Of a stretch of 64,000 bases of DNA, positions 1,277 through 57,481 are shown one piece after another (within the stretch, counting starts at the first letter, position 1; every line of letters begins with the position of its first letter). The position numbers and the translations under genes are program-made. This stretch comes from Squalus acanthias. Taxonomy: Eukaryota. The stretch spans positions 48,734,001 through 48,798,000 of the forward strand of contig CM059432.1 in NCBI GenBank assembly GCA_030390025.1. The letters run 5' to 3'. The notes beneath the pieces were generated by a model that searched no databases, was not told where the DNA came from, and saw only the letters and a program-made list of their open reading frames with translations.

Positions 1277-4200
1277 GGGGAGGGATTTCCAATTGGGGAG
1301 GAGGAGTTCTGGTCGGGCCAGGTGTCCCCGAACACAGCGGAGTTTTAACTCCATGGTGTGCATGTTTTTTTTTTAACAGGTTCCCCAGAGGGAGAGTTGC
1401 GGAGCGGGGGTGGTGGCGTCGGGGAGGAATCGGAGAGAGAGATGGAGTGTCGGGGGAGAGTCGGTGATCGCGGGGGGGTCGGTGATCGCGGGGGGGGGGG
1501 GTCGGTGATCGCGGGGGGGTCGGTGATCGCGGGGGGGGGAGTCGGTGATCGCGGGGGCGGGGTTGGTGATCGCGGGGGGGGAATCGGTGATCGCGGGGGG
1601 GGTTGGTGATCGCGAAGGGGTCGGTGATCGCGGGGGGGTCGGTGATCGGGGGGGGGTCGGTGATCGCGGGGGGGGGTCGGTGATCGCGGGGGGGAGTCGG
1701 TGATCGCGGGGGGGGTTGGTGATCGCGGGGGGGTGATCGCGGGGGGGTCGGTGATCGCGGGGGGGGTCGGTGATCGCGGGGGCGGGGTTGGTGATCGCGG
1801 GGGGGGTGTCGGTGATCGCGGGGGCGGGGTTGGTGATCGCGGGGGGGTCGGTGATCGCGGGGGCGGGGTCGGTGATCGCGGGGGGGGTTGGTGATCGCGG
1901 GGGGGAGTCGGTGATCGCGGGGGGGGTCGGTGATCGCGGGGGGGGGGGAGTCGGTGATCGCGGGGGGGGTCGGTGATCGCAGGGGGGGAGTCGGTGATCG
2001 CGGGGGGGTCGGTGATCGCGGGGGGGGAGTCGGTGATCGCAGGGGGGGAGTCGGTGATCGCGGGGGGTGATCGCGGGGGGGGAGTCGGTGATCGCGGGGG
2101 GGTCGGTGATCGCGGGGGGTGATCGCGGGGGGGCAGTGATCGTGGGGGGGTCGGTGATCGTGGGGGGTGCGGTGATCGCGGGGGGTGATCGCGGGAGGGG
2201 TCAGTGATCGCGGGGGGTGATCGCGGGGGGGGCGGTGATCGTAGGGGGGTCGGTGATCGCGGGGATCGGTGATCGCGGGGGGTGCGGTGATCGCGGGGTT
2301 CGGTGATCGTGGGGGGGGTTGGTGATCGCGGGGGGGGTCGGTGATCGCGGGTGGGCGGTGATCACGGGGGGTGATCGCGGGGGGGGTCGGTGATCGTGGG
2401 GGGTGATCGCGGGGGGAGAGTCGGTGATCGCGGGGGGGTCGGTGATCGCGTGGGGGGTCGGTGATCGCGGGGGGGTCGGTGATCGGGGGGGGTCGGTGAT
2501 CGTGGGGGGGGTCGGTGATCGCGAAGGGGTCGGTGATCGCGGGGGGGTCGGTGATCGGGGGGGGTCGGTGATCGCGGGGGGGGGGGTCGGTGATCGCGGG
2601 GGGGGTCGGTGATCGCGGGGGGGTCGGTGATCGGGGGTGTCGGTGATATCGGGGGGTCGGTGATCGCGGGGTTCGGTGATCGTGGGGGGGGTTGGTGATC
2701 GCGGGGGGGGTCGGTGATCGCAGGGGGGGTTGGTGATCGCGTGGGGTCGGTGATCGGGGGGGGTCGGTGATCGTGGGGGGGGTCGGTGATCGCGGGGGGT
2801 CGGTGATCGCGGGGGGGTCGGTGATCGGGGGGGTGTCGGTGATCGCGGGGTGGGGTCGGTGATCGCGGGGGGGTCGGTGATCGCGGGGGGGTCGGTGATC
2901 GGGGGGGGTCGGTGATATCGGGGGGTCGGTGATCGCGGGGTTCGGTGATCGTGGGGGGGGTTGGTGATCGCGGGGGAGGTCGGTGATCACAGGGGGGTTG
3001 GTGATCGCGGGGGGTCGGTGATCGCGGGGTTCGGTGATCGTGGGGGGGGTTGGTGATCGCGGGGGGGTGATCGCGGGGGGGTCGGTGATCGCGGGGGGGG
3101 TCGGTGATCGCGGGGGCGGGGTTGGTGATCGCGGGGGGGAGTCGGTGATCGCGGGGGGGTTGGTGATCGGGGGTGTCGGTGATATCGGGGGGTCGGTGAT
3201 CGCGGGGTTCGGTGATCGTGGGGGGGGTTGGTGATCGCGGGGGGGGTCGGTGATCGCAGGGGGGGTTGGTGATCGCGGGTGGGCGGTGATCACGGGGGGT
3301 GATCGCGGGGGGGGTCGGTGATCGTGGGGGGTGATCGCGGGGGGAGAGTCGGTGATCGCGGGGGGTCGGTGATCGCGTGGGGGGTCGGTGATCGCGGGGG
3401 GGTCGGTGATCGGGGGGGGTCGGTGATCGTGGGGGGGGTCGGTGATCGCGAAGGGGTCGGTGATCGCGGGGGGGTCGGTGATCGGGGGGGGTCGGTGATC
3501 GCGGGGGGGGGGTCGGTGATCGCGGGGGGGGTCGGTGATCGCGGGGGGGTCGGTGATCGGGGGTGTCGGTGATATCGGGGGGTCGGTGATCGCGGGGTTC
3601 GGTGATCGTGGGGGGGGTTGGTGATCGCGGGGGGGGTCGGTGATCGCAGGGGGGGTTGGTGATCGCGTGGGGTCGGTGATCGGGGGGGGTCGGTGATCGT
3701 GGGGGGGGTCGGTGATCGCGGGGGGTCGGTGATCGCGGGGGGGTCGGTGATCGGGGGGGTGTCGGTGATCGCGGGGTGGGGTCGGTGATCGCGGGGGGGG
3801 TCGGTGATCGCGGGGGGGTCGGTGATCGGGGGGGGTCGGTGATATCGGGGGGTCGGTGATCGCGGGGTTCGGTGATCGTGGGGGGGGTTGGTGATCGCGG
3901 GGGAGGTCGGTGATCACAGGGGGGGTTGGTGATCGCGGGGGGTCGGTGATCGCGGGGTTCGGTGATCGTGGGGGGGGTTGGTGATCGCGGGGGGGTGATC
4001 GCGGGGGGGTCGGTGATCGCGGGGGGGGTCGGTGATCGCGGGGGCGGGGTTGGTGATCGCGGGGGGGGGGTCGGTGATCGCGGGGGCGGGGTTGGTGATC
4101 GCGGGGGGGGTCGGTGATCGCGGGGGGGGTCGGTGATCGCGGGGGGGGTTGGTGATCGCGGGGGGGAGTCGGTGATCGCGGGGGGGGTCGGTGATCGCGG

Positions 4201-7160
4201 GGGGGGAGTCGGTGATCGCGGGGGGGGTCGGTGATCGCAGGGGGGGAGTCGGTGATCGCGGGGGGGTCGGTGATCGCGGGGGGGGGAGTCGGTGATCGCA
4301 GGGGGGGAGTCGGTGATCGCGGGGGGTGATCGCGGGGGGGGAGTCGGTGATCGCGGGGGGGTCGGTGATCGCGGGGGGTGATCGCGGGGGGGGCAGTGAT
4401 CGCGGGGGGGTCGGTGATCGTGGGGGGTGCGGTGATCGCGGGGGGTGATCGCGGGAGGGGTCAGTGATCGCGGGGGGTGATCGCGGGGGGGGCGGTGATC
4501 GTAGGGGGGTCGGTGATCGCGGGGGATCGGTGATCGCGGGGGGTGCGGTGATCGCGGGGTTCGGTGATCGTGGGGTGGGTTGGTGATCGCGGGGGGGGTC
4601 GGTGATCGCGGGTGGGCGGTGATCACGGGGGGTGATCGCGGGGGGGGTCGGTGATCGTGGGGGGTGATCGCGGGGGGAGAGTCGGTGATCGCGGGGGGTC
4701 GGTGATCGCGTGGGGGGTCGGTGATCGCGGGGGGGTCGGTGATCGGGGGGGGTCGGTGATCGTGGGGGGGGTCGGTGATCGCGAAGGGGTCGGTGATCGC
4801 GGGGGGGTCGGTGATCGGGGGGGGGTCGGTGATCGCGGGGGGGGGGTCGGTGATCGCGGGGGGGGGTCGGTGATCGCGGGGGGGTCGGTGATCGGGGGTG
4901 TCGGTGATATCGGGGGGTCGGTGATCGCGGGGTTCGGTGATCGTGGGGGGGGTTGGTGATCGCGGGGGGGGTCGGTGATCGCAGGGGGGGTTGGTGATCG
5001 CGTGGGGTCGGTGATCGGGGGGGTCGGTGATCGTGGGGGGGGTCGGTGATCGCGGGGGGTCGGTGATCGCGGGGGGGTCGGTGATCGGGGGGGTGTCGGT
5101 GATCGCGGGGTGGGGTCGGTGATCGCGGGGGGGGTCGGTGATCGCGGGGGGGTCGGTGATCGGGGGGGGTCGGTGATATCGGGGGGTCGGTGATCGCGGG
5201 GTTCGGTGATCGTGGGGGGGGTTGGTGATCGCGGGGGAGGTCGGTGATCACAGGGGGGGTTGGTGATCGCGGGGGGTCGGTGATCGCGGGGTTCGGTGAT
5301 CGTGGGGGGGGTTGGTGATCGCGGGGGGGGTCGGTGATCGCAGGGGGGGTTGGTGATCGCGGGGGGTCGGTGATCGCGGGGGGTCGGTGATCACGGGGGT
5401 CGGTGATCGCAGGGGGGGTTGGTGATCGCGGGGGGTCGGTGATCGCGGGGGGGGTGGGTGCTCGCGGGGGTCGGTGATCGCGGGGGTCGGTGATCGCGGG
5501 GTGAGTGGGTGATCGCGGGGGGGGTCGGTGATCGCGGGGGGGTCGGTGATCGCGGGAGGGGTCAGTGATCGCGGGGGGTGATCGCGGGGGGGGCGGTGAT
5601 CGTAGGGGGGTCGGTGATCGCGGGGGATCGGTGATCGCGGGGGGTGCGGTGATCGCGGGGTTCGGTGATCGTGGGGGCGGGGTTGGTGATCGCGGGGGGG
5701 GTCGGTGATCGCGGGGGGGCGGTGATCACGGGGGGTGATCGCGGGGGGGGTCGGTGATCGCGGGGGGTGATCGCCGGGGGAGAGTCGGTGATCGCGGGGG
5801 GTCGGTGATCGCGTGGGGGGTCGGTGATCGCGGGGGGGTCGGTGATCGGGGGGGGTCGGTGATCGTGGGGGGGGTCGGTGATCGCGAAGGGGTCGGTGAT
5901 CGCGGGGGGGTCGGTGATCGGGGGGGGGGTCGGTGATCGCGGGGGGGGGGTCGGTGATCACGGGGGGGGTCGGTGATCGCGGGGGGGTCGGTGATCGGGG
6001 GTGTCGGTGATATCGGGGGGTCGGTGATCGCGGGGTTCGGTGATCGTGGGGGCGGGGTTGGTGATCGCGGGGGGGGTCGGTGATCGCAGGGGGGTTTGGT
6101 GATCGCGTGGGGTCGGTGATCGGGGGGGTCGGTGATCGCGGGGGCGGGGTCGGTGATCGGGGGGGTGTCGGTGATCGCGGGGGTGGGGTCGGTGATCGTG
6201 GGGGCGGGGTTGGTGATCGCGGGGGGGTCGGTGATCGGGGGGGGTCGGTGATATCGGGGGGTCGGTGATCGCGGGGTTCGGTGATCGTGGGGGGGGTTGG
6301 TGATCGCGGGGGAGGTCGGTGATCGCAGGGGGGGTTGGTGATCGCGGGGGGTCGGTGATCGCGGGGTTCGGTGATCGTGGGGGGGGTTGGTGATCGCGGG
6401 GGGGGTCGGTGATCGCAGGGGGGGTTGGTGATCGCGGGGGGTCGGTGATCGCGGGGGGTCGGTGATCACGGGGGTCGGTGATCGGGGTGGGGGGGAGGGT
6501 CAGTGATCGCTTGGTGGGGTGGGTGATTGCTCTGTAACTAATTTTCAGTCTGTCTGCACTGTTCCTGTTAAAGTCATAAACAATGCTAGAGATTAGAGAC
6601 AGGTTGATGTTATCGCCATAAAGGGATTGATGCAGTTGCTCACGGTGGGGGGGGGGGCGGTCGGTTATCGCTGGGTGGTGGGTTGGGTGATTGCGGGGGG
6701 GCGTTGTTGATCACGGGGGTGCAGTCAATGCGTTGGGGATGGGGTGGTGATCGCGGGGTGTTCGGTGAGAGATTGTGGAGATGAGGGTGTGTTTACAGGT
6801 TAGCCTTTGGGGCCTGGAGGATACACTCCTGCTCCTCCTGGCCCACAAGCAGTGCTGTAAAGGGACTTACCTAATGGATCCGGCCCTTCTCGCCTTCTTT
6901 TACCTGCCGGGCCCAGGAAACCCGGCCGACTATGGTTAAAAATAGAAACGCTGTTAAGTTGGTGGCACGCAGCCTCCTGAAAAGGTTTCAACGACCAACC
7001 CACCCCCTGGGAGAGGATTGGTCGCTTGCCCCTCATCCTGCCTCCATTAAAACCGTAAGTGGGCGGGATCGAGACGGGTTGTGTTCCTGTTTAAAATTTT
7101 TTACTTTTTTTATCTCCCACCCAACCCAAACCCATGCGCTTTTAGGGGATAAAACTACTT
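1277..7160 (-). mobile_element. Non-autonomous DNA transposon (MITE-like) hosting the minisatellite
   Basis: 6810-6925 is the reverse complement of 15700-15800 in the MITE at 15474-16278 (CACTCCTGCTCCTCCTGGC.CACAAGCAGTGCT...ACTTACCT). Ends are not sharply defined. Confidence 0.55.
1459..6510. repeat. G-rich CpG minisatellite, unit about (GTCGGTGATCGCG5-9)n, with higher-order duplications
   Basis: Directly visible tandem array of 14-21 bp units over about 5 kb. Degenerate units continue to about 6760. Confidence 0.98.
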
Positions 7161-11672: not shown

Positions 11673-12520
11673 GGGCTGGATTTTGAAACTGGGGTCGGGT
11701 TGGTGTCCTGAATCACACATTTTGGCTTGTAAACCTGCCTCCATCGACTTGTGGCCAACCCACTGTATTTTCCCTTGATTGACCTTGTTGAGCCCGCCCA
11801 GTGGGCTCAGCAGGCCAATTAAGGGCCGGCCACCCGGCAACAGGTGACGTCACAGATTGACATTTCATCTGTCAAGAGCTTTTGACAGATGAAATATCAG
11901 CGTTTGACAGCTCTGTGAAGCTGTCAAACACTGACAATATGATTTCTAACTTGAGTCCTTCCTCTCAGGCTGAGTTAGAAATCATTCCAGCACAGAAAAC
12001 AGAAGGCTGCAGTTTTTGACAGGACCACGGCTTTTCTGCTTTCTGTGCCGGTGAGATTTCTGACTCCCGAGAACTGAAGGGCTGACACCTGCAGGAGGAA
12101 GTTAAGGTAAGTAAAACTTTTTCCCACACTTAGCACTTACCTTACACACTTACCTCTGCACACATGCACCCATCACTCACCTGCCCACCGGACATATCGA
12201 CCCCTCCAACCCCTGCAGACCCACAGTCCGCCCCGATAACTTGGCGTGGTTGCCACCTGTCGGGAAGCCCACATTTCACCTTTTAAAATAGGGATTAGGC
12301 AAAAAACTGCCTGTTAACTACCTGTTAACAGGCAGTTAATTGTCACTAATCCCTTCCCGCCTCGGGGAGTCGGGTCTCAGCACAGGTTGGGTACCCGCCG
12401 CCAGCGAAACTGGCATGGAGGCGGGTTGGAGGTGGGATGGGGTCGGGACCCCCGAATCTGCAACTTTAACCCCCCACATGCCTCCAAACCCGACTCCACG
12501 GGTCATTGAAAATCCAGCCC
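11673..12520 (+). mobile_element. PIF/Harbinger-type MITE, family 1 (palindrome-array family)
   Basis: 12 bp perfect TIR GGGCTGGATTTT with 3 bp TSD TTA on both sides (11670-11672, 12521-12523). Confidence 0.9.
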
Positions 12521-13959: not shown

Positions 13960-14770
13960 AAACTTGTTTAGATTAGTTGGAGCTTGTGATGTGCAAGCTC
14001 TGACCAGTATTTCTGGGTTTTAAGCTGCCTAGACCAGCAGTCCATAATGGGATTGCTGGAGGTCGCTCAAAAAAAGGCCCCAAAGCTTTGTGAAATTTTG
14101 AGTTTTGTGGTGTTGGAAGGAGCAGGAGTGTTCCTCCTGCCTCCACAAAACAACTGCAGGGCACTGCCTACCCACCCTCAGCCCCCTCCCGATCACTTGC
14201 CTTCCCCCCTCCCCTGGACTTAACTGTGGGTCTCAGTGCTGGCCAAAATTGGTTAGGCCCAGACAGGTGAGCTGCATCAGGGCAGTGACTGGCGCCTGCA
14301 GCTCACCTGAATTATGATGATGAGGTCCGAGGATGAATTTAGTTTGGTCCTCGGGCCTCTCCGTTCTTGGTGCACCATCGGGATTGTGCCCGGTTTTGGG
14401 AATGAATTTAGGTCCCAGTGTAACAGAGACAGACCATTCTGAAACAACATCCATTTCATAATATTGCATTTTCAACCATGATGAATGTATATTGTACAAT
14501 GACATTATCTTTGGCCTATTAAAAACCTAACCTAATGCCAGTTAGACTTGCTTTCACGAATTATCTCATGTCCAAAAATTGCAATTTGAACCATAATGAG
14601 TATTTTTAGAAATTAACCATTATCTTAAAATTTTCAAGGAAAAGATTTTACAAACATAAAGAGGCAGAGGTGACACCTATTGCTGAGATAGTATTTATAC
14701 TGATGTACATGCTGAGGACTTTCCAAAACTTGTGATAAGCTGGGCACATTCATTTATACCAGTGGCTTAC

Positions 14771-15473: not shown

Positions 15474-16278
15474 GGGGGGAATTTTACCCCACCCCATGAT
15501 GGGGGTGGGGGGGGTGTTAAAAATTAAAAATTGGGTAGCGGGACCCCAACCCGCCGCATACAACCTGCCGCCATTTTTACAGCTCTCGAGAGATGGAACA
15601 TCTCCTTATAATATTTAAATCAGGCTCCCACAGTGCAGTTGGGAGCCTGATTTAAATTTAATGCTGACTAGCCAGGTTTCCCAGGGCTCAGGAAACCCAG
15701 CAGTGAAATGGAGACGGGAGAAGCCGGATCAAGCAGGTAAGTGCTATTTATAGCACTGCTTGTGAGCCAGGAGGAGCAGGAGTGCTTCCCCCAGCCACTC
15801 AAGCAAATCCTCTGCCACACCCTCCATCCAAACTCATGATTCCAAGCCTTATGGCCCGCAATCTTTGCCGATCTCCCCTCATGCCCCGTGATCTTTGCCG
15901 ATTGCCAGGGACTGCCCCCAGCAGTTTCTGGCTGCAGCCTTCTACCACAGGCTTTCCTGCCCAACAGCTGGCCAGCCTGTCAATCTGGCCAGCCTGTCAA
16001 TCTGGCCAGCTGCTGGATGGGAACCAGAATTTAAAAAATGATAATGAGGTCCTGAAGTTAAATTTGCCTTCAGCAATCTTGGCGAGAGGACTTCAAACAG
16101 GCGTTAGGCCCCTTATTTGTTTTTGGAAAGGGTCTAACGCCTGCTTCAGGTGTGGCTAAAGGATGCCTCTTGTGTGTCCTAACCCAATATGGTGGGTGGT
16201 GCACTTTCGCCATATTGGCGCCTTAGTAGTCCAAGTCGTACCCGAAAGACGAGCGTTGCGTGGACCAATTTCTGGGCC
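15474..16278 (+). mobile_element. Harbinger-type MITE, family 3
   Basis: Ends GGGGGGAATTTT and AATTTCTGGGCC. Interior is homologous, in inverted orientation, to 6810-6925. TSD imperfect (ATT/ATG). Confidence 0.6.
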
Positions 16279-26261: not shown

Positions 26262-27515
26262 ATGCGGAGATGCCGGTGTTGGACTGGGGTGGACAAAATT
26301 GAGAGGTCGCACAACACCAGGTTATAGTCCAACAGTTTTATTTGAAATCACAAGCTTTCGGAACTATCGCTCCTTCCTCAGGTGAAGTAAATTGGATACA
26401 GAATCGTCAGAGCATATATAGATGGAAAAAAAAGCATGTGTACTTTACAATTGCAGACCAATAAATTAAATCATCCTGACTATCTGCCGAGGTGTGATAA
26501 AGTTAATTAAGTCAGCCAGGAAGGTACCACATCAAAAGACATAGCAAGATACAACTGAGACAATGAGGTGAAGTCGCAGGGGTTCTAACGTGTCAAAAGC
26601 TGCCGTCTGTATGTAAAACGAAAAGCTTTAAAAAAAAAAAAAAAAATTACTTTTTTACTGGGAAAATTTTTACTTTTTTACTGGGAATCACATCTGTGAA
26701 CAAGCTAACGACGACTCGAGTCCGGATCACGTCATGTATCGTGACATAAACCCAAGATCCCGATTGAGACCGTCTTCATGAGTGCGGAACTTGGCTATCA
26801 GTTTCTGCTCGATGATTTTGCGTTGTCGTGTGTTTCTAAGGTTGCCTTGGAGAACGCTTACCCGCAGATCCGAGGCTGAATGTCCTTGACTGCTGAAGTG
26901 TTCCCCGACTGGGAGGTAACAATCCTGCCTGGCGATTGTTGCGCGGTGCTCGTTCATACGTTGTCTCAGTGTCTGCATGGTCTCGCCGATGTACCATGCC
27001 GCGGTGCATTCTTTCCTGCAACGTATGAGGTAGACAACGTTGGCCGAGTCACATGAGTATGTACCATGTACCTGGTGGGTAGTGTCCTCACGTGTGATGG
27101 TGGTATCTGTGTTGATGATCTGGCATGTCTTGCAGAGTTTGCCATGGCAGGGTTGTGTGGTGTCGTGGTCGCTGTTATCCTGAAAGCTGGGTAATTTGCT
27201 GCGAACGATGGTACTTCTGAGGTTAGGCGGCTGTTTGAAGGCAAGTAGTGGAGGCGTGGGGATGGCCTTAGCGAGGTGTTTGTCGTCATCGATGACATGT
27301 TGAAGGCTCCGAAGAACATGTCGTAGTTTCTCCGCTCCGGGGAAGTACTGGACGACGTAGGGTACCCTGTTGGTTGTGTCCCGTGTTTGCCTTCTGAGGA
27401 GGTCTATGCGATTTTTCGCTGTGGCCCGTCGGAACTGTCGATCGATGAGTCGAGCGTCATATCCCGTTCTTACGAGGGCGTTTTTCAGCGTCCGTAGGTG
27501 TCCATCGCGTTCCTC
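26262..27515 (-). mobile_element. 5'-truncated Penelope-like element, family A (RT thumb, Cys linker, GIY-YIG endonuclease, pLTR)
   Basis: CHGKLCKTC and NVVYLIRC...WYIGET...RMNEH motifs; 13 bp TSD CTTGTATTCTATG (26249-26261, 27516-27528). Confidence 0.92.
26348..26385 (-). ncRNA. Minimal hammerhead ribozyme motif (PLE family A), sense to RALYL
   Basis: Minus strand reads TCAC-CTGAGGA-A-GGAGC(GATA)GTTCC-GAAA-GC-TT-GTGA. Confidence 0.75.
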
Positions 27516-27900
27516 CTTGTATTCTATGCCACGGCTAATAAAGGCAAGCATTCCATATGCCTTCTTAACCACCTTATTATCTACCTGGCCTGCTACCTTC
27601 AGGGATCTGTGGACATGCACTCCAAGGTCCCTTTGTTCCTCTACACTACTCGGTCTCCTACCATTTAATGTGTATTCCCTTTCCTTGTTAGCCCTCCCCA
27701 AATGCATTACCTCACACTTCTCCGGATTTAATTCCATTTGCCACTGTTCTGTCTACCTGACCAATTTATTGATATCTTCCTGCAGTCTACAGCTTCCTTC
27801 TTCAGTGTCAACCACACAGCCCATTTTAGTATCATCTGCAAACTTCTTAATCATACCCCCTATATTCAAGTCTAGATCATTGATATATAGCACAAAAAGC

Positions 27901-35012: not shown

Positions 35013-38000
35013 ACCTCCACAACACCCTGGTCCACTCCTCAATCATCCCCAACAGCCCCTCCCCTACCCTCCCCATGGTACCTTTCCGTACAAGTGCAGG
35101 AGATGCAACACCTGCCCTTTTACCTCCTCCCTTCCCACTGCCCAGGGCCCCAAACACTCCTTCCAGGTGAAACAGCGATTTACTTGTACTTCTGTCACTT
35201 TAATTCTCCGCTGCACTCCCACTCTGACCTCTCTGTCCTCGGCCTCTTACACTGTTCCAAGCTCAACGTAAGCTCAAGGAACAGCACCTCATCTTTCGAT
35301 TTGGCACTTTACAGCCTCTGGACTCAACATTGAGTTTAACAACTTCAGACCATAACCTCTGCGACAGCTGTTGATTATTCTGCCATTCCCAGTTGCAACA
35401 TTTAATCTCTCCTGCCTTCCACCCTATCACAGACCGTCCCTTTTGTTCTTTCCTCCCCTTCCCCCTTTCCCTGCCTCTGCACCTGCTTAAAATCTGTTAC
35501 ATCTCTAACTTTTTCCAGTTTTGACGAAGGGTCACAGACCTGAAACGTTAGCTCTATTTCTCTCTCCACGGATGCTGCCTGACCTGCTCAGTGTTTCCAG
35601 CATTTTCTGTTGTTATTTCAGATTTCCAGCATCCGCAGTATTTCACTATTGTATTAGTGTTTGGTTCACTGCCACTTCTCTTCCAGGAATGCCCACCTTG
35701 AAGAAGTTCTGCTCTTCTCTCCGACGGGATTTCCGTTTGTCTCTTCAACCTTGTTCATCTTCATTACTTTCTGTTTCCCTTCTCGTGTTTGATCAGATAT
35801 CTACCAAGACTCGTTTTCACAGCCACATCTCTTTCCTCAGCAACTGTCTCCGGTCTCGACTTATTCCACGTGGATTCCAACTGAAATTTCACCCTTCGTG
35901 CTTCGGATCCACCCAGGATTACAGATATCTCCAAGATATTCAGCGTTCCTCGAACTACAGCTCTCACTGCATCCTGAGATCCACGCTCAACGCCATGCGT
36001 CGCCACATGAACACTCTTGACCTCTCTCTTCAGCAGCACCGACTCACTCTATCTCAAAGCTGTCCTGGTCCGCAGTTCCATTTCATCCTTCGCCTCATCT
36101 GGCGCTTCAACAACAAACTTTTTTTCTTCCTTTCAGGTGTCAAGGATCGCAAGCTTTAACAACTCTTGGATACCAACACCCCTCCGGAACTTTCTTCCCC
36201 TTCACTTTCCTCTGACCCCATCCCTTCTTCCAATCTCACCCCCTGCCGTGTTTTCACTATCCCCTCTGACCTTCCCCTCTCTAACCCCGAACGATCAGTC
36301 CTCAGCAAAGGCCTGAGCTTCTTCCCCTTACACCCCCACCTCAATGAATTTTGAGCACGGCAAGATGCCGAGCTCCTTTTCCGTCGCCTTCGTCTCCGTG
36401 CCCACTTCTTTGGCCAGGAGTCATCCCCCACACAGTGGACCCTTTCTCCCGCTTTCAGACTCCTCCCTCTGGCCTCTTACACTCTGTAGATCTTTTCATT
36501 GCTAACTGCCGGCGTGACGTCAGCTGTCTTAATTTCTCTGCTCCCCTCACTCACTCCAACCTACCTCCCTCTGAACTTGCAGCACTCCGTTCTCTCCGAT
36601 CCAACCCTAACATTGTCATTAAACCTGCTGACAAGGGTGGTGCTGTTGTTGTTTGGCGGACCGACCTCTACCGTGCGGAGGCTGAACGCCAACTCTCTGA
36701 CACCTCCTCCTACCTTCTCCTGGACATGACCCCACTACCAAACATCAAGCCATTGTTTCCAAGACTGTCACTGACCTCATCTCCTGTGGAGATCTTCCCT
36801 CCATGGCTGTCAACCTCATAGTTCCCCAACCCCGCACAGCCTGCTTCTACCTCCTTCCCAAGATTCACAAACAGGGCTGCCCTGGTAGACCCATCGTTTC
36901 AGCCTGTTCTTGCCCCACGGAACTGATTTCTTCCTATCTCGACTCTATTTTTTCTCCCCTTGTCCAGTCTCTTCCTCACCTACATTCGCGACTCTTCTGA
37001 TGCCCTTTGCCACTTTAACAGTTTCCAGTTTCCTGGCCCCAACTGTCTCCTTTTCACTATGAACATCCAATCCCTCTACACCTCCATCCCCCACCAGGAT
37101 GGCCTGAGGGCGCTCCACTTCTTCCTTGAACAGAGGCCCAACCAGTCCCCATCCACCACCACCCTCCTCCGCCTGGCTGAACTTGTTCTCACATTGAACA
37201 ACTTCTCCTTTGACTCCACTCACTTCCTCCAACTTAAAGGTGTTGCTATGGGAACCAGCATGGGCCCCTAGCTATGCCTGCCTTTTCGTGGGATATGTGG
37301 AACATTCTTTGTTCCAGTCCTACTCAGGTCCCCTCCCGCACCTCTTTTTCCGGTACATTGATGACTGTATTGGTGCCGTTTCCTGCTCTTGCCCTGAACT
37401 AGAAAATTTCATTCACTTTGCTTCCAATTTCCACCCTTCCCTCACCTTCACATGGTCCATCTCCGACTCTTCCCTTCCCTTCCTCGACTTCTCTGTCTCC
37501 ATTTCTGGAGATAGGCTATCAACAAACATCCACTACAAGCCCATTGATTCCCACAGCTACCTGGACTACACTTCCTCCCACCCCGCTTCCTGTAAGGACT
37601 CTATTCCATTCTCCCAGTTTCTCCATCTCCGCCGCATCTGTTCTAACGATGCCACTTTCCATAGTAGTGCTTTCGATATGTCTTCCTTTTTCTTCAACCG
37701 AGGATTCCCCTCTACCGTGGTTCACACGGCCCTCGACCGTGTCCATTCCATTTCCCGCACTTCTGCTCTCACCCCTTCCCCTCCCTCCCAAAACCACGAT
37801 AAGGTTCCCATTGTCCCCACCTTTCACCACACCAGCCTTCACATTCAACGAATCATCCTCCGCCATTTCCGCCAACTCCAGCGTGATCCCACCACCAAAC
37901 ACATCTTCCCCTCCCCTCCCCTTTCAGCTTTCCGAAGGGACTGCTCCTTTCGCGACACCCTGGTCCACTCCTCAATCACCCCCAACAGCCCCTCCCCTCC

Positions 38001-38667
38001 CTACGGTACCTTCCCGTGCAAGCGCAGGAGATGCAACACCTGCCCTTTTACCTCCTCCTTTCCCACTGTCCAGGGCCCCAAACACTCCTTCCAGGTGAAA
38101 CAGCGATTTAGTTGTACTTCTTGCAATTTAGTATACTGTATTCGCTGCTAACGATGCGGTCTCCTCTACATTGGGGAGACCACTTTGCGGAACACCTCCA
38201 TTCAGTCCGTAAGGGTGACCCCGAGCTTCTGGTCGCTTGTCATTTTAATTCTCTGCTCCACTCCCTCTCTGTCCTCGGCCTCTGTCACTGTTCCAATGAA
38301 GCTCAACGTAAGCTCGAGGAACAGCACCTCATCTTTCGATTCGGCACTTTACAGCCTTCTGGACTCAAAATTGAGTTCAACAGTTTCAGACCATAACCTC
38401 TGCCCTTAGTTTTTCAGGCAGCAACTGTTGATGATTCTGCTATTCTCAGTTGCAACATTTAATCTCTCCTGCCTTCCACCCTATCACAGACTGTGCCTTT
38501 TGTTCTTTCCTCCCCTCCCCCTTTTCCCTGCCTCTGCACCTGCTTAAAGTCTGTTACATCTCTAACTTTTTCCAGTTCTGATGAAGGGTCACAGACCTGA
38601 AATGTTAACTCTGTTTCTCTCTCCATGAATGCTGCCTGGCCTGCTCAGTGTTTACAGCATTTTCTGT
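35013..38667 (+). mobile_element. Essentially full-length Penelope-like element, family B, with upstream pLTR (ORF disrupted)
   Basis: IKPADKGGAVVV, FYLLPKIHK, GRPIVS, GVAMGT, RYIDD, CKRRRCNTC and VYCIRC..YIG motifs. 35013 to about 35650 repeats the 3' end (37955-38667). TGTTAA direct repeat at 35007-35012 and 38668-38673. Confidence 0.92.
38574..38610 (+). ncRNA. Minimal hammerhead motif (PLE family B); a core-mutated twin lies at 35517-35553
   Basis: AGTT-CTGATGA-A-GGGTC(ACA)GACCT-GAAA-TG-TT-AACT. Confidence 0.65.
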
Positions 38668-38754: not shown

Positions 38755-39650
38755 GGGGGAAAAATTCAGTTGATTGTGCCTCCCGTTAGCGCCTTAAGAG
38801 GGCGCTAATGGGGCGCAACGCAACTAGCGCCTGGGCATGGCGATGTTTGCGCCGCTCGCGAAATTAACTAGACATTTTGCGGCGGCGCTAAACACTACAG
38901 CCACGATCTCCTGCGCCGGCAGATCGTGACGTCAGTCGAGTGCGCAACGCTCCGGTAGCGCCCCGGAGCAGATCTTGAGTGGCGCCCCCTGCCTTACCAC
39001 CTGCCGCTAGCAACGACAGGTTGAGGGGAGCATTTTGCAGTCAGGAAGGGACTGGGGGAGTGCTATTTAAAGGCGACCGTTTCCTGCCTTTTATTGTTGG
39101 TGACATTTTTGAACCACGCATTCTGAGAGAGAGAGAGAGAGAGAGACTTCTGGAGAGATTCAACGCTGTGTGAAGTAGTTTTGGGTACTGAGCAGCACTT
39201 TGCAGGTTCATTTTGATTTGCCCTTACTTGTATCGATTTAGAAGAGACTGTGGGGGCTGCACTCTGAGCTCTTTCCCTGGTACTCTCCATTGTTCTTTCC
39301 AGCAGATTTGATGTACAGGTCTCTCCAGGCCGAGATTCAAGGCTGCAATGAGCAGGATGTGGATGGAAAGCAAGATCAACCCTCCCCTTTAAGAACTGGC
39401 CGGCGCCATTGTGTGTGTGTTCCATTGCTGACTGACATCACATGAGCTTCGCCAGCGCTCTGAGGTAGCGCCTCGCTCCTCGGCCTTTGCGCCTTAAGAC
39501 AGGTGTGAAGTGCCTGATTTAGCGCTCCAATCACCTCCAGGGCGATAAAAGTCAAGTTTGTAGTCGGAGGCGATAATTAGCGCCAGGCGCTAATCTTTGC
39601 GCCCGGCCGATAATTGCGCCCCAAATGGGGCGATACTGAATTTCTTCCCC
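38755..39650 (+). mobile_element. Harbinger-type MITE, GC-rich family 4
   Basis: TIRs GGGGGAAAAATTCAGT / GGGGAAGAAATTCAGT (14 of 16 match), TSD ATT on both sides, many AGCGCC/GGCGCT subterminal motifs. Confidence 0.88.
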
Positions 39651-41375: not shown

Positions 41376-41377
41376 GA

Positions 41378-41990
41378 GAAATTAGCGCACTTGTGGACCA
41401 AAGCATTATGCAGCGTCTGATAGCCGATTTCTCAGCTTACATTGCAGCACAAGCAGATGTCACCCAATGTCTGAGTGCTGCAGTGGAAGCTCAGACTTCT
41501 GTCATGCAGGCTCAGCTTACTGCCACGCAAGCTCAGATTGCTGGCATTGTGGATGCGGTTATCAGTGTTGAAAGGGGCTTGCAGGGTGTCACAGCAGACC
41601 AGCAATCTGTCCTCCAACAAATTACTAGGATTGCTGAGGCACCGCTCTGGGGGAGTGGCAGTGGTTTGTTGAGCACGAACCTGCTGTCCTCTCTCAGGTT
41701 GACAGCATTCGTGCTCCCACCACTGTCACTCCGCCAGTGCCTTTGCTTTTGCCTGTCAGCCAGCCAGCCCGGATTGCTGCCGCCCATACCGAGATGGTGT
41801 AGTCCGAAGCCGGGCCGTCTAGGCCCAGAGCTGCTCGAGGTTATCCTGCAAGGCCATCTGCAGTCTTCCCCGCTGAAGTTCAGCAGCCTTCCACCAGCTA
41901 TGCTGCAGCCACTGGGGTAGCACTGCGTAGGAGCACTAGGACAGGCAACGGCACACGGAAGACAGGCACAAAGGGAATGCACAAGGGTGA
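41378..41990 (+). pseudogene. Probable C-terminal (coiled-coil, Pro/Ser-rich) part of the Harbinger Myb-like gene
   Basis: Ala/Gln-rich helical ORF 41393-41920 lying tail-to-tail with the transposase. Assignment rests on position and composition only. Confidence 0.5.
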
Positions 41991-42151
41991 TTAGTTGACG
42001 TTTGTATGTAATATTGGATGGTTTGATTTATAAATTTGGTTTAGAATGCTTGTTTTGTGCTGTCTTTTAATTTTGCATTGTGCTGTGATGCTCAGTAACA
42101 GAGGGAAGGTAAGGTGTGGGACTGTAGGTGAATGGGGATTTGGGGTTGTAT

Positions 42152-44039
42152 TCACTGGTACCACAGTCGAATGAGTCGATCACGGACAGCCTGGCCAGAA
42201 AGGGGCTGTGTTGGTTGCATCCACCCTTCCTCCACCTCCTCCTCTTCCCCCTCCTCCTCCTCAGCTCTTCGCTGTATACCTGGTGCAAGGGCTGTGCCCT
42301 CATGGTGGCGAGGTTGTGCAGCATGCAGCAGACCACGACGATTCTTGAGACATGCTCTGGTGAGTACTGCAGGGCTCTTCCAGAGTGGTCCAGGTAGAGG
42401 AGGCATTATTTAAGCACCCTAATGGTCTGCTCGATTAAATTCCATGTGGCAGCATGACTTTCGTTACATGCATGCTGCCCACGTGTGCTTGGGTTGCACA
42501 GACATGGGCCAGGTGGTCAGCGGATAGCTCTTGTCATCCAGTAGCCACCCACTGGTTTATTGTGGTGGATCAAATGCGGATGGTCCAGTGGACTGCCGCA
42601 GAATGAAGGCATCGTGACTGCTGCCAGGATAGCGAGAATTCACTTGCATGATGCACTGAGTATGGTCGCACACCAGCTGGACACTGAGGGAGTGGAATCC
42701 CTTCTGGCTGCGGTACATTTCTGAATTCACATGCAGCGCCTGCAAAGCAATGTGCGTAAAGTCAATGGCACCCTGCACAATGGGGAAGCCTGCAATCCTC
42801 GCGAAGCCGCATGCTCGCTCTGCTTGCTGCTTTCTGGCAAGAGACAATGAAGGGCCAAAAATACTGTGTACTCACCCGTAAGGCGTCCTGAAGTGCCAGT
42901 TTCCTGCATGCACTGCGCATGCGCGGGAAACCGGAACTTCCGGTCTGGTGAAGGGAGCGGTTCATAGGTGAACCGCGTGCGCGGTAGAGGCTGCGCGCAC
43001 GCAGCAAACTTAGGTTTTTTTTCAGGTTTCTACGGGAGGGTAAGTATTGAAGAACCTGCGCTTTTAAAAAGGAGGCGCAGGACCCGTTTTCAATAAGGTA
43101 AGTGGTTAATTAACTATAATTTAAAAAAAATTTCAACAGGTTTATCTTTTTTAGATACTTTAAAGAAAGGTAAGTTTATTTTTAGCACTGTTAAAAAGTA
43201 TTTTAATTTTTTCAAAAATTTAAATTTTTGTTTAAAGTAGTTAATTTATTTAACTTATAGTTATTTTATAAATGTGATGGCTTTTTAAAAATGTATTTGA
43301 AGTTTAGCTGTTCTTTTGGGGCCGATTTTAATTCATAGATTTGACAGGTCTTCCTGTCAAATCTATGCATGAAAGATGGTCTGCTGCCATTGGCTCTCCA
43401 TGGCCCACGTGATCCCAGGGGACGCATCGCACTAACTGCGCCCCTGGGACACGCAAGCACTGCGCGCCGGCACTTGGAGCAGGCCCAGGAGCTGAAGTTC
43501 CCGTGGGCACAGAGGTCAACGGCAGGCGCGGTAGGTAAGCGCGCGTGCGATCCTTACCCCCGCGGCAAGCCGGAGAGGCGAATTTCAGGGCCGAAATGTA
43601 TTCACCTCTTTTTGCACATCGAGCCTGAGTGACCTCCCTTGTGCAACAGTGCATGGCAAATTAGGAGATGTTGGAAATATCACCTGCTCCAGCCTGGAAG
43701 GAGCCCAACACAGAACAATTCATGGCCACACTCACCTTCACAGCCAACGGTAATGCTGTCCTTGCCCTGTTCTGAGGCTGCAGTTCTGCCTGCAACAGGT
43801 GGCAGATTTCAGTGACCACCTCCTTAGTGAAGCGGAGACATTGCACACACTGTTCCTCACTGAGGTTGAGGTAGGAAAATTGCTCCCTGAAGACCCTGGG
43901 CAGATATGGCCTCCTGCTGAGAGCCCTCCTGCCCCTCCTCCTCCTCCCTCTGCGAGCAGCTTATCCTCTCCTTCGCTGCCTGCACTCCATCTCCCTGTCA
44001 TACTCAAGCGTGAGGGGGATCTGCAAGTAAAGTCTCCAT
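42152..44039 (-). pseudogene. PIF/Harbinger DDE transposase (HARBI1-like), disrupted and interrupted by a MITE
   Basis: LRFTKEVVTEIC, GSFQ..AGD, AGFP.VQGAID.TH, KGFHSL.VQLVCD, YPGSSHDAFIL, GWLL.DK.YPL, IEQTI, CCMLHNLA and an acidic tail. Confidence 0.92.
42852..43592 (-). mobile_element. Harbinger-type MITE, family 2 (inverted copy of 57482-58244)
   Basis: GAA duplicated at 42849-42851 and 43593-43595. Removing the insert restores transposase RGEYIS-LSLARKQ. Confidence 0.9.
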
Positions 44040-44113
44040 AATGCTCTATGCAAATAGAGCTAGCGGTTTGAGCAGAACCATTTAAATCAGAAACAAGGCA
44101 TGCTCCACTCACT

Positions 44114-44807
44114 GGGGGCTAGAAATTGGGCACTGTAACACCTCCAGTTATTGCCTCTGGGGGGAGGCGATAATGGGGCGCTAATCACTTACTGACCGGG
44201 CGCGGTGAGAAGATCGACTCCCGCTATATTCGGAAGGAGGTTTGCGGCAGAGGTACGGCGTTGCACCCCGATCTCCTTTGCCCGGAGATTGTGACGTCAT
44301 CGCCGTGCGCATCGTCCCGGTAGTGCCCCGGACCCGAACTTTGGTTCTGCCCCCTGCAGCATCGCCAGGCAAAACCACCGGCAGCTGCAGGAGGCGTTCA
44401 TCCGGAGGCCGGGCGCTTCGGGGGGCGATACTTAAAGGCGAGGTGGCCGAGGTAAGTGGAAAAAATTCTCAAATGCTCTTTCTGGTTTTTTTTCATTTTT
44501 CTTCACCAGCGATCGATCAGTGCATCGGGCCAGATCGCAGCTGCCTTCAGGGACCAGGTAAGTTTTTTCCTTGCAGAGCCTGCAGCGATGGCTCTTCCCT
44601 TTAAGGGAGGGAAGGAACCTTCCAATGCGGCAGCGCTGCACGGCCCACTGTGCAGCACTGCTGAAGTTTCCGCCCCGCCTGCTGCCTGTTGCGCTCCAGG
44701 AAGGAAGTGGAGCACTTGATTTAGCGCTCCCCTTCCTTCCTGGTGCGCAAAACCAAATTTTTTAAAAGTTAGCACCCCAAACGGGGCTATAATTAATTTC
44801 TCCCTCC
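44114..44807 (+). mobile_element. Harbinger-type MITE, GC-rich family 4 relative
   Basis: Ends GGGGCTAGAAATT and AATTTCTCCCTCC. Subterminal blocks (GGCGATAATGGGGCGC, GATTTAGCGCTCC, CCCTTTAAG) are shared with 38755-39650. Confidence 0.75.
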
Positions 44808-46696
44808 AGTCACCTCACCAACTTAAATAACTGTAGAAATCTCCAAACAGTTGCACAAACTTACACAGAGCCAGTAGAAATCAAAATTCAAGTCAGCTGC
44901 AAGTGGTTGCTGATCCCTTTAAATAGCGCTGGTGGGGGGCCCTTCCTGCTGCTGGCTGCATGTTCAGCTGGTTGTGATTTGGAGAGGGCATTGAAGGGAG
45001 CGACGGCGTCTAAAATGGCAGATCATGCGTCAAATCAGCGTTGCACATTGATTGATGTCACAATCTGCCTCATTACCATTTCTCTAGCAAGTGTAGGCAA
45101 TGGCCGCGCAGCCGACCTGCCCAAAATGGTGGCCACTGCGGGACCCGCGAGAAATGGGCAGAAGCGAGTCGGCTGACATTTTTTCTCCAAAATCGGTTTC
45201 ATCAACTGGCACTAAGGTGCCAAATTTCACGGCCCACGTCTTTCATTCGAAAGCTGACTTATTCATTTAAGGTGTGATGATGTTAGTCACTGATGCAGAT
45301 GCCTGCGTAATGTCTATCAGCACTCAAATGCATCTTATCCTCATCACCCATAGTTTATTGTCAATATGATGCATTGAGTTTACTTTTGTATTTTAATTTA
45401 CGGCCAGCCACTGTAAATGAAACACGAGCAGCAGGCAGTATGCTCAAGATTGTTAAAAGCAATTTCAAGAATGGGTTTCAATCTGTGCATTTGGTGCTAC
45501 ATTGTAAAGAGATTCTTGTCTGCAATCTGTAGCACCTAGTAACAAAGGCAGTAAGAATGTAAAGAAAATCAGGCTGATCCACCACCACCACCAGTTCTCC
45601 ACTGGTGCTGAAAATGAAAATTAGCCCAGAGACTTTTCATGACAAAGTTAGAATTCTGTTGTCCTCTGTGATTAATGAGCCACTAACAAAATCATGGCAA
45701 CATGTAGCTTTGAAGTAAGCGATTTATGAAAATGTGACTTCATTATTGGGTCATGAATTCAAGAGGAATTTCACCCCTTTTATGAAAATAAAATGGTACA
45801 ATATGGGCATATGGTATTTTGAAAACATCAAAAATAATTTACATTTTCTTAACTTCTTATATTAATAAGCCAGCTTTCAAATATCAATTGATTATATGGT
45901 AATCATGAGTGTTCCAGCATATTTAATGTTTGATAGCAGATTGAGGGTCTATTATAGCTTAAGGTGCAACTAAGTGCTTTAATGAGTTCCCATATTTCAA
46001 CATAAAACTCACTGGAATATTCATTAAGACTTATTAGTTGATAAAATTAAATTGTGTCACAACTGTTCAGATGGTGTTATCATTTGGGTTTTTATAGAAT
46101 CTCTCTCAATGGTCTAACTGTGGTAGCCACAACTGAACCTTACCCACTAAGATTCAGAATGTGTACCTTTCTAGATATGGTCCTCAAAGAGGTGCATTCC
46201 TGAGAGCTAACAATGATCCCACATTAAACTAAATAAGCAATCTATTTACATTATTTAATGCAGCCTTATGTCACAAAGATTAGCAGTTTATAGACTAAAG
46301 TAACTAGTATCTTACAATTGAATTTTAATATACAAAACAAAAGAAAATCAGCACAAGTATGTAATACAAAAACACACACAGTGAATAGGATGAAGTCATG
46401 GTTGGAACCATGGGCGACACCAGAGGTGACTCTAGATGAGAGGAAAAGTAATTGGACAGGATAATTAATTGTGTTAGGACAGGTAGGAGTGAATCTAGGA
46501 GAGAGGTAGTGAAGGAGGATGAAATGGCCATCTGTATTGTAGGCTGCAGAGAGATTAGGCACATCAGAACAGGAGTAGACCTTTCAGCCCCTCAAGCCTG
46601 TTCCGTCATTCAATTAGATCATGACTGACCTGTATCATACCTCCATTTACCCACCTTGGTTTCATATCCCTTAATATCCTTGCCTAAAAAAAAACA

Positions 46697-48780: not shown

Positions 48781-49620
48781 GAATCTCAGTTTTGAAATTT
48801 TCAATTGACCTAGCCTCAACAGCTTTTTGGGGGAGAGAGTTTCAGATTTCCACTACCCTTTGTATGAACAAGTACTTCTTGACATCACCTCTGAACAGCC
48901 TAGCTCTAATTTTAAGGTTATTCCCCCCCTGTTGTGGACTCCTTCACCAGAAGAAATAGTTTCTCTCTATCTACCTATCAAATCCTTTAATCATCTTGAA
49001 CACCTCAATTTGATCACCCCGTAATCTTCTATACTTGAGGGAATATGGAACCTAGTCTATGCAACCTGTACTCATAATTTAACCCATTTAGCCCTGGTAT
49101 CATTCTGGTGAATCTGTGCTGCAACCCCTTAAAGGCCAATATATCCTTCCTGAGGTGCGGTGCCCAGGACTAAACACAGTACTCCAGATGTGGTCTAACC
49201 AGAGCTTTATACAACTGTAGCATAACTTCCACCCATTTGTATTCCAGCCCCTTGAGATGAAGGCTACCTCTGCTCCTCCACAGTTCCTACCTTGGCACCA
49301 TTTAGAAAATACCTTGATCGATCTTTCTTAGATCCAAAGTGGATGACCTCGCACTTCCCCGCGTTAAACTCCATCTGCCACAGTTTTGCTCGCTCACTTA
49401 ATTTATCAATGTCCTTTTGCAACATTTTGCTCCAATCTACATGACTTATGATGCCACCTAACTTAGTGTCATCAGCAAACTTGGATATATGGCTCACTAT
49501 TTCTTCATCTAAGTCATTGCTAAATATCGTGACAATCTGAGGCCCCAGTCCAGATTCCTGGGGGACACAACTAATCACATCCTGCAAAACTGGAGTACAT
49601 AATCATTATCCATACTCTCT

Positions 49621-50327
49621 GGGCTAAAAATTGAGTAGCGCCCCATTTGGAGCGCTAACTTCGCTGGGGCGCTACTTTTAGCATTCTGGAAAAATTAGCG
49701 CCCCCGCGCCAGAACTTGAGTGGTTGTGCCCCAAGAGGGAAGCGGGGTGCTACTGGAAGCACCCCGCATCCCTCTTGGGGCGCTGCGAGTCAATATCGTG
49801 ACGCTACGTGCCGCAGCACATCGCACCGCAGTACTGCAGGCCTTCCTCCCCTTCTTAAAGGGGAGGGGTCTTGTGCAGCGCAACCCGGGGCCCAGCTGGG
49901 CCCCCGGGGATCGGGAGTGCCGGATAAAGAGCCCGGCACTCAAGAGAAGTGCCAGGCTCTTGGAGCACAGCCGGCACTCCAAAGGGGGGGGGGGGGAGGG
50001 GCCATTCAGGAGGCTGGGGACAGGAGTGCAGGCAGGTGCTGGCAGGCGGCCGCAGGTAGGCTCCCTGACCCCGTCGGACGTAGCATCCGGTGGTAAGTCA
50101 GGGGGCGCTCCCAAAGATCGTGGCCGAGGCGCGAGCGGGGCACTGCGCACGGCGATGACGTCATCGCCGGCGGCAGGGCGCTACCGGTTAGCGCCGCCGC
50201 TAACCTCCCACTGAATTTCGGGGGAGGCGTCGGCGGCGCCGCACCCGGGCGCTAGTTGCTTTGCGCCCCCCATTAGCGCCCTAAGAGGGCGCTAATGGGA
50301 GGTGCAAAGCAACCCAATTATTCCCCC
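49621..50327 (-). mobile_element. Harbinger-type MITE, GC-rich family 4 relative
   Basis: Ends GGGCTAAAAATT and AATTATTCCCCC; inverted homolog of 52394-52998. Confidence 0.8.
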
Positions 50328-50819
50328 ATGTCTCTTATCTCCTAACCAATTCCCAACCATGCCTTACCAAAGAGCCGGCACAGGCACGATGGGCCTCATG
50401 GCCTCCTTCTGTGCTGTATGATTCTATGCCAAAAGGTTGCCTACAATTCCACACGCTTCCATTTTTTGGTAATGAAATACTAACGGGTTTCTGGAGAGCT
50501 GAGAAAATATTTATTGCCCATCCCTAGTTCTCCTGAGGGCATTAAGAGCCAACCAGTGGGACTGGAGTCACATGTAGGCCAGACTGTGCAGGGGTAGCAT
50601 TAGTAAACCAGTTGGATTTTAATGACAATCTGGCAGCTTTCATTTAGTGCTACCCACAAATTTATTAAATTGAATTTCCGAATTTGCCACAATGGGATCC
50701 TGGTTTGCTAGACTACCATACCAAAGGTTGAGAAGGATGAGCTGAGAACAATGCACTATTTTGCTGGTCTTGGTGCTGTGGGCAGGACAGAAATCAGACT
50801 GGTGGGATTCAAACACATT

Positions 50820-51657
50820 GGGCTGGATTTTCTCAATGGAGACGTGTTGGAGGCGGGACTGCTGCTTGCCTGGTTTCAGTCCCGCCTCCATCAGCCTCTG
50901 GCCAACCAGCGGGATATTCCCCTGATTGATCTTATTAAGCCCGCCCGGTGGGCTCAGCAGGCCAATTAGGTGGAAGTCAGTGACAGAGCACGTCAACGTA
51001 TGACGTGTCATCTGTCAAGAATTTTTGAAAGAAGAAATGTCATCGTTTGACAGCTCTGTGAAGCTGTCAAACACTGACATTCTGTGTAGTTTGATGAGGC
51101 CTTGTGTTCAGGACTCATCAAACCTTTCTACTTTGTAGAAATCAGATGACTGTTGGATTGGAGGATCCAACAGCCAGTCTGTGATCTCTACAATGGAGGT
51201 GTCGGGACTTCAGCTCCACAGCGGCTGAAGGCAGAAATAAAGGTAAGTTAACATTTTCTAACACTTTACACTCACCTCACATACTTACCACTCCACACTT
51301 GCATCCATCACTCACCTCTACATTGCACTTTCAGACCCCTCCGGCCCCCGCAGACCTCCTATTCGTCTCCTACACCCTGGCGGGGTTCCCCGAGGTCGGG
51401 AAGCCCGCACTTGTGAATGAAAAATGGGGATAATCCTATTTTCTGCCTGTTAACTACCTGTTAACAGGCTGTTAATAGGCTTTAATCCCTTTCCCGCCTC
51501 AAGCAGACAGGACCCGGGGCAGGACGGCTTCCCACCTCCTGGCAAGAGGGCACGGAGGCGGGTTGGGGGCAGGTTTGCCACCCGCTCCCAAATTCTGCAA
51601 CTTTCCCGGCAATCCTGCCTCCACACCCGCCTCCTCGGGGCTGAGAAAATCCAGCCC
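50820..51657 (+). mobile_element. Harbinger-type MITE, family 1, second copy
   Basis: 16 bp perfect TIR GGGCTGGATTTTCTCA and internal blocks shared with 11673-12520. TSD not preserved. Confidence 0.85.
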
Positions 51658-57306: not shown

Positions 57307-57481
57307 AAAGAATGATGATAATTTTGTAAAAGTATTGGAGATAGGAATTTAATACAAATGTTTTAAGCATTCTATGACAATACTGCTCACAGTGAGTTGC
57401 AGGATATTATAACTCACTAAAAATCATTTTGTCCTTTCCTAATATTTGTCAATGATACAATGGGTCGTCACCGATTATCAT

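Follow-up and report, generated by a model that had tools for sequence, protein, structure and literature searches.

The window, by which we mean the whole 64-kb stretch of DNA that was analyzed, is rich in reverse-transcriptase fragments and small TIR elements. Presumably, the many reverse-transcriptase fragments are CR1-like, and ORF pieces at 26727-27752 and 36348-38151 appear to resemble Penelope-type reverse transcriptase and GIY-YIG endonuclease, the former piece being inserted in a CR1-like fragment. A GC-rich satellite at ~1390-6500 is made up of 15-22 bp units based on GGTGATCGC and a G run, and displays higher-order repeats and strong strand skew. Two of the TIR elements are copies of one type, designated family A:

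11673..12520, no strand assigned: copy 1, 848 bp, with TIR GGGCTGGATTTT, TTA/TTA flanks and AAACAC in the left flank
50820..51657, no strand assigned: copy 2, of another subfamily, 838 bp, with ATT/AGA flanks and AAACAC in the left flank

The copies are colinear, with 573 of 848 aligned positions identical (68%), and no third copy of the family A element occurs in the 64-kb window. Each has a perfect TIR of 12-13 bp, with 14/16 and 16/16 terminal bases matching, which is shorter than the 25-50 bp that the consulted portion of PMC9179366 gives as usual for PIF/Harbinger elements. The duplicated 3-bp target site is intact in one of the two copies (TTA/TTA in copy 1, ATT/AGA in copy 2). AAACAC precedes both copies and corresponds to the left half of the target consensus of Harbinger3_DR (PMC3016246, in excerpt); the right half of that consensus is unmatched in both. 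A relic of a Harbinger transposase (DDE_Tnp_4, E 6e-10) also lies in the window and gave the Pfam match found in one of five frames tested. Based upon the TTA/TTA duplication, the AAACAC flank and this relic, family A is very probably a non-autonomous PIF/Harbinger-type element. No parent with family A TIRs was found in the window, where the Harbinger relic has different TIRs. Family A is non-coding. The longest ATG-initiated ORF overlapping copy 1 encodes only 56 aa, and a 124-aa stop-to-stop frame overlapping copy 2 is without a Pfam match. At 838-848 bp the element exceeds the 100-500 bp given for MITEs in the part of PMC2836001 consulted. Between copies there are 168 transversions versus 95 transitions over the element, so that the spacers look near saturation, and spacer lengths are nearly unchanged; the transversion excess together with the steady spacer lengths suggests deep divergence under a spacing constraint.

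The interior of both copies contains an array of abutting hairpins (H1 to H4) and a further stem (H5):

11858-11899, no strand assigned: H1, 17/18 pairs, a dyad of TGACA half-sites; in copy 2 at 51000-51043, 15/19 pairs, decayed
11897-11936, no strand assigned: H2, 15/16 pairs over 11897-11934, a TTTGACAG-N10-CTGTCAAA dyad; in copy 2 at 51036-51081, 18/20 pairs
11939-11985, no strand assigned: H3, with a perfect 13-bp outer stem; in copy 2 at 51089-51123, 13/14 pairs
11987-12051, no strand assigned: H4, long and imperfect; in copy 2 at 51133-51193, with a perfect 9-bp inner stem at 51150-51173
12305-12342, no strand assigned: H5, with a 14-bp perfect stem at 12305-12337; in copy 2 at 51435-51479
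50848..50890, no strand assigned: a subterminal hairpin of copy 2 only, perfect over 14 bp and built on the GGAGGCGGG motif, which is repeated near both ends of both copies

An earlier note on this DNA had placed H1-H4 and the H5 stem at these sites in copy 1, and all of them were recovered with the same pair counts; the same stem order in copy 2 was likewise found, with H1 decayed. Folding of the array yields -94.7 kcal/mol in copy 1 (z -9.1) and -83.7 kcal/mol in copy 2 (z -6.4). The shuffled control that the note had proposed left the stems standing, since none of 200 shuffles was as stable as the array of either copy. Over the whole element, five stems scoring >=9 occur in each copy, compared with shuffle means of 0.25 and 0.10.

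The central claim of the note, that symmetry is kept while sequence changes, is borne out for H3 and H4, which are 21/47 and 33/65 identical between copies (45-51%) and still fold in both. When copy 1 H3 and H4 were mutated at random in simulation, the stability of copy 2 was attained in 0/300 trials with 51% of sites mutated and in 1/300 with 28% mutated; because random mutation almost never reaches that stability, the symmetry of H3 and H4 truly persists. The further statement that the H3 arms and all of H4 differ holds for the H3 outer arms, which are subfamily-specific, and goes too far for the rest, because conserved cores remain: the H4 left-arm core at 11994-12003 is 9/10 identical between copies, and the H3 inner core TGAG..CCT/CAGG is kept in both. 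At outer positions of H4 (fixed-diagonal table, n=24), eight have the same pair and four are changed on both sides.

The remaining stems behave differently. Identity between copies, loops included, is 35/42 in H1 (83%), 39/40 in H2 (97%) and 33/35 in H5 (94%), which against the 68% background gives p 3e-6 for H2 and p 2e-4 for H5. The H2 loop is invariant, and none of 21 positions in H2 is changed on both sides. A C.A mismatch in H2 is common to both copies, so arm-to-arm repair has been incomplete. A 12-bp unit ending in TTTGACAG occurs three times in copy 1, at 11877, 11899 and 12011 (in H1, H2 and the inner part of H4), and TTTGACAG itself is found six times in the 1,687 bp of family A versus five times in 55,716 bp elsewhere in the window; four of those five sites form a dyad after CCAAT in a second MITE family (43327-43374 and 57697-57748). 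The 14 perfect pairs described near 12305 are present, although three GTTAA units with an 11-bp period, which occur in both copies, are the better reading of H5. A fixed sequence and loop, half-sites that recur and phasing with the helix mark H1, H2 and H5 as likely double-stranded DNA binding sites rather than RNA stems. The suggestion of modular DNA binding sites thus fits these three stems, with their fixed sequence and loop, their repeated units and the helically phased H5. H3 and H4 diverge to a degree similar to the unstructured spacers (49% v 57%, p 0.15). Both-sided changes in H3 form a single block of 5/6 consecutive pairs, all double transversions.

Pattern scans outside the window brought up no other copy of the element. 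In metagenome contigs the H2 motif gave no match and the H5 motif gave one, in a contig (L013) that is gene-dense, looks bacterial and lacks the element; an intergenic region there (1031-1057) matches >21 bases of H5, among them the direct-repeat pair, and this was taken as chance. A loose scan for the H2 dyad in viral contigs gave 12 matches that were taken as unrelated short dyads, and the single match from a scan of prokaryote genomes (L014) was put down to chance.

Around the stems, both ends of family A carry promoter-like and splice-like motifs:

11772..11852, + strand: left promoter-like block, with a GC box, CCAAT at 11815 and the CRE-like TGACGTCA at 11845, of putative promoter role
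12104..12112, + strand: AAG/GTAAGT donor-like motif (12107), facing inward from the left end; in copy 2 at 51240-51248
12125..12182, - strand: three donor-like GGTRAGT motifs at 12180, 12153 and 12140, facing inward from the right end

Starting at the left end, the order toward the interior is GC box, CCAAT, CRE-like motif, H1-H4 and donor 12107. Starting at the right end, the minus strand presents a GC-rich motif and H5, next a TATA-like run that only copy 1 has, and then donors 12180, 12153 and 12140. Between copies, 45 of 50 positions are identical at 11772-11821, and 48 of 58 in the donor-like cluster, where spacings of 27 and 13 are found in both. The distance between TIR and CCAAT is 142 bp in both copies, and distances of landmarks to the nearer TIR are kept within 4 bp. 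The array had been described as lying between a CCAAT/CRE-like block and an AAG/GTAAGT donor. CCAAT and the donor are indeed in both copies, although that description overlooked donor- and acceptor-like motifs on the minus strand, where the + donor motif reads as branch-point-like and lies ~20 nt before an acceptor-like AG (12089; 51225 in copy 2). This AG could mark a real mini-intron or could be the mirror of a purine-rich exon end.

One could read the donor-like GGTRAGT repeats as a Myb/SANT binding motif, the whole interior then being a protein scaffold lacking promoter or leader. Such motifs are in fact arranged at fixed spacings, both in tandem and as inverted arrays, family B (described below) has an inverted 12-bp GGTRAGT-type pair near a TIR (58193-58223), and GGTRAGT may resemble a motif of human MSANTD3. 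Against this, the + motif of family A matches a donor perfectly and is purine-rich on its upstream side, and the similar motif of the Harbinger relic sits where a leader donor is needed, between TATA-like box and acceptor. We regard this scaffold as very improbable.

The relic itself allows for comparison with a coding element:

~41376-45234: decayed Harbinger relic of a different family from A, with a DDE_Tnp_4 fragment on the - strand and a convergent coiled-coil ORF on the + strand

The coiled-coil ORF, which has no Pfam match, we take to be Myb-partner-like. At the right end of the relic are a TATA-like motif at ~44924, a leader of ~55 nt, a donor at ~44862, more donor-like motifs and an acceptor at ~44021, followed by the transposase. 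This right end is present a second time near 57076-57307, and the relic has a further two TIR elements (42852-43592 and 44113-44790) nested in it. The relic thus supports a parent anatomy in which a similar promoter-leader-donor-acceptor plan is convergent on the Myb-partner-like ORF.

Our preferred reading, to which we assign a probability of about one half, combines three parts: fusion of the promoter-and-leader ends of a two-gene parent, DNA binding sites in the fixed dyads, and upkeep of H3 and H4 by template switching. The parent would have contained a pair of convergent genes, both of them having a promoter and a spliced leader of their own. As the simplest origin, a deletion between their first introns would have joined two inward-facing promoter-and-leader ends, leaving the + donor (12107) ~33 bp from the nearest minus-strand donor. 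This deletion origin is argued by analogy with another family, since a parent with family A TIRs is unseen. Next to each core promoter, a dimeric protein may bind the TTTGACAG dyads and the phased GTTAA units, the element's own Myb/SANT protein or a host factor being a candidate, and the fixed dyads would be kept since internal cis sequences tune transposition or expression of the parent. In the portion of PMC9921582 consulted, internal sequences tune the mobility of mPing, although these effects share no motif and are put down to general DNA features, which counts against our proposal. The conserved cores of H3 and H4 would start fold-back in the single-stranded intermediates that arise during repair or replication in actively copying lineages, whereby changes in the outer arms would be copied across the stem; inserted copies would afterwards just decay. 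Template switching is described as yielding hairpins and compensatory blocks of change without selection (excerpts of PMC5453318 and PMC8794818). Here the mechanism is inferred only, because in-place inversion of the H3 arms gave two matches in ~970 tests against ~1.3 expected by estimate, which does not exceed chance. A non-RNA view is favored by the lability of the stems, as H1 is decayed in copy 2 and one perfect hairpin is present in that copy only, and likewise by the block-like changes of H3, the spacer-like divergence of H3 and H4, the even split of wobble mismatches between strands and the general occurrence of stems in the TIR elements.

A different account of the drifting stems keeps H1, H2 and H5 as DNA sites and has H3 and H4 as selected RNA stems in a spliced leader that damps translation of the Myb protein or transposase. 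The transcript would be either a + leader ending at 12107 or a minus-strand exon after a mini-intron of ~90 nt (12180 to 12089). H3 and H4 are located between promoter-like motifs and a donor, their distance from the left TIR is kept within 4 bp in both copies even though the spacers are near saturation, and three of the four outer double changes of H4 are transitions. The minus-strand acceptor geometry is also kept and would place H4-H1 in spliced RNA. The minus-strand fold of the array is the more stable one in both copies, by 11.1 and 9.8 kcal/mol; the significance of this difference against dinucleotide shuffles was gone under a wobble-flip null (p 0.19 and 0.14), with the direction being the same in both copies. 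No significant strand bias is seen in wobble mismatches, which number 10 on the donor strand versus 11 on the other over eight elements (p 1.0), a comparison with few mismatches and low power. The leader end of the Harbinger relic, moreover, has no stem scoring >=9 in either of its copies. Both-sided changes affect five of 50 consensus pairs in a comparison of two full copies only, and such counts depend on the alignment, given that sliding H1 or H2 by one base creates 11-12 false changes.

Sequencing runs were used to survey further copies, and four of 24 listed runs were mapped on 11780-12360 at 80% likeness, two of them only presumed to be RNA. Family A sequence was found in all four. In a single DNA run, 7,256 contigs map to 581 bp of copy 1, a figure that indicates high abundance and is not a copy-number estimate. 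The depth profile is alike in 4/4 runs, with H2, the minus-strand donor cluster and H5 standing out as peaks and H4 as a trough; in run X1, the summed depth is 1.6 million on H2, 1.1 million on the donor cluster and 1.7 million on H5, versus 0.1 million on H4. Because these peaks and this trough recur in the four runs, we read the fixed blocks as common across subfamilies and H3 and H4 as subfamily-specific. Among 24 of 243 loose ends listed, the copy 2 type of H3 follows 11935-11936 in two DNA runs, and an apparent third H3 type is also found among the listed loose ends, its two arms coming from different contigs. Among 40 of 104 variant rows listed, a frequent variant at 11896, which makes up 57% of depth in X1, re-forms the single broken H1 pair of copy 1. 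None of six listed joints matches the 12107 donor or the 12180-12089 splice, a negative that is weakened by the use of contigs and by subfamily divergence, and an unspliced contig with a depth of ~1,090 covers 12074-12172 in a presumed-RNA run, contigs being weak evidence. Both observations run against a spliced leader. The structured RNA leader proposed in the earlier note is therefore possible for H3 and H4, given their place between a promoter-like block and a donor, and is without a significant strand bias or a listed spliced joint; on balance we consider the leader account a real rival, although the less likely one. It is less probable still, and in our judgment improbable, that family A specifies a selected, spliced and structured non-coding transcript in which the fixed dyads would be Myb operators and H3 and H4 RNA modules swapped between subfamilies.

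The same runs bear on the proposal that the array serves the element as a source of either a structured non-coding RNA or precursors of small RNAs. H4 is pre-miRNA-sized, its sequence is present in the presumed-RNA runs, and plant MITE hairpins can give rise to small RNAs (PMC12595863, in excerpt). No match to Rfam reaches the gathering score, however, with 11 weak generic ones below it, and the best miRNA-model score for H4 is a weak 28 bits versus a gathering score of 97. The stems that would yield the mature RNA are the least conserved part of the element, there is no strand bias, and presence in RNA contigs is expected from any abundant intronic repeat. As a small-RNA precursor the array is highly unlikely, and that suggestion of the earlier note is not upheld, given the lack of Rfam matches at the gathering score and the unconserved sequence of the drifting stems.

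Hairpins are not special to family A within the window. Twelve TIR-element segments were delimited by eye, comprising 8,065 bp or 12.6% of the window, and 22 of the window's 24 strong stems (score >=11) fall within them (p 3e-18). Ten of the 12 segments contain at least one stem scoring >=9, the two without being ends of the coding relic's family. In family D, hairpins lie between a TATA-like motif and donors. Stems also decay in single copies, as in H1 of copy 2 and in one family D hairpin. These counts have a bearing on the idea that all stems act as DNA structure, as cruciforms or single-strand hairpins that aid transposition or gap-repair copying irrespective of their sequence. The enrichment of stems in TIR elements of several families is strand-neutral and agrees with such a role, which leaves the fixed H2 loop and the phased H5 units unexplained. 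Arms of 13-18 bp with GC-rich loops also extrude poorly, and we hold it unlikely that DNA structure accounts for all stems. The array had been put forward as the best candidate for an undescribed system in the window, which is overstated for a Harbinger-type non-autonomous element where hairpins occur in 10/12 TIR segments. What is distinctive in family A is the density of its stems and their split into fixed and drifting ones.

Several of the other TIR elements have layouts of their own. Family B (57482-58244 and 42852-43592) is 79% identical between copies, with a CAT/CAT duplication in one of them, and contains an E-box and CCAAT, a long TTTGACAG dyad with the H2 core, an AT-rich tract and 4-5 same-strand donor-like motifs; its inverted pair at 58193-58223 is of GGTGAGT. 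Four related GC-rich TIR elements (49620-50328, 52393-52999, 38755-39650 and 44113-44790) display mosaic sharing of end segments, 24-28 bp stems, CRE-like and CTTAAAGG TATA-like motifs and paired donors, and that at 44113-44790 has a donor-acceptor-donor micro-exon layout. TIR-type elements at 15474-16278 and 14040-14417 carry perfect stems of 18 bp and 13 bp, respectively, and both contain a ATGAGGTCC motif like the H3 core; the former also has two tandem GATTGACAG motifs on the minus strand at 15976-16001.

Family A is tidy anatomy within a known transposon class and does not constitute a new system; only the demonstration of a functional processed or spliced RNA would make it surprising. 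If our preferred reading of promoter-end fusion, fixed DNA sites and template-switch upkeep is true, a very abundant class of vertebrate transposon would have distributed finished promoter modules, complete with dyad binding sites, over a shark-like genome, and its subfamilies would offer naturally occurring data for telling apart hairpins that template switching maintains from those selected as RNA. Telling template-switch upkeep from RNA selection is an open problem in the reading of compensatory change. Were the selected-transcript reading true, family A would be a DNA transposon that encodes no protein yet controls transposition or neighboring genes through RNA of its own.

In the literature searched, Harbinger mini-elements of sharks with hairpin arrays were not found described, although a consensus may be deposited in Repbase or Dfam. 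The excerpt of PMC9179366 reports Harbingers as undetected in the elephant shark, with other cartilaginous fish unexamined there. DECA-CCAAT (TALE/NF-Y/Sp2; bioRxiv 10.64898/2026.02.16.706105, in part) resembles two MITE families of the window in having CCAAT near TGACAG-type half-sites. It was rejected as a match, given a canonical spacing of 10-11 bp there, whereas family A has ~28 and 35 bp and family B ~22 bp, and the half-sites here are arranged in inverted dyads rather than in the DECA decamer. With regard to the drifting stems, template-switch hairpins (PMC5453318, PMC8794818 and PMC13334657, each in excerpt) are among the closest parallels, with multi-base, both-sided changes, short inversions and repeated or inverted arms that arise without selection, although as far as those excerpts go the papers concern human mutation clusters, RNA genes and FEN1-deficient cells and not one transposon class. 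Returning to the dyads, the TGACAG-type half-sites are presumably TALE-like.

Among vertebrate Harbingers, Harbinger3_DR and Harbinger3N_DR of zebrafish, as cited in the consulted parts of PMC3016246, PMC2836001 and PMC9392472, have an extended target preference, and their AAACAC target half precedes both family A copies. The Myb-like protein of Harbinger3_DR binds the element ends, and an internal hairpin array is not mentioned in those excerpts. The flanks of family A, on the other hand, lack the right target half, and the central triplet differs. Also among the closest to family A are the Tourist-like PIF/Harbinger MITEs, such as rice mPing (PMC2836001 and PMC9921582, in excerpt). The words "hairpin" and "promoter" are absent from the main text of the mPing paper (PMC9921582), which favors non-sequence-specific effects. 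Compared with the Tourist-like MITEs, as far as these sources describe them, family A is larger (838-848 versus 100-500 bp) and has an interior of fixed dyads and drifting hairpins.
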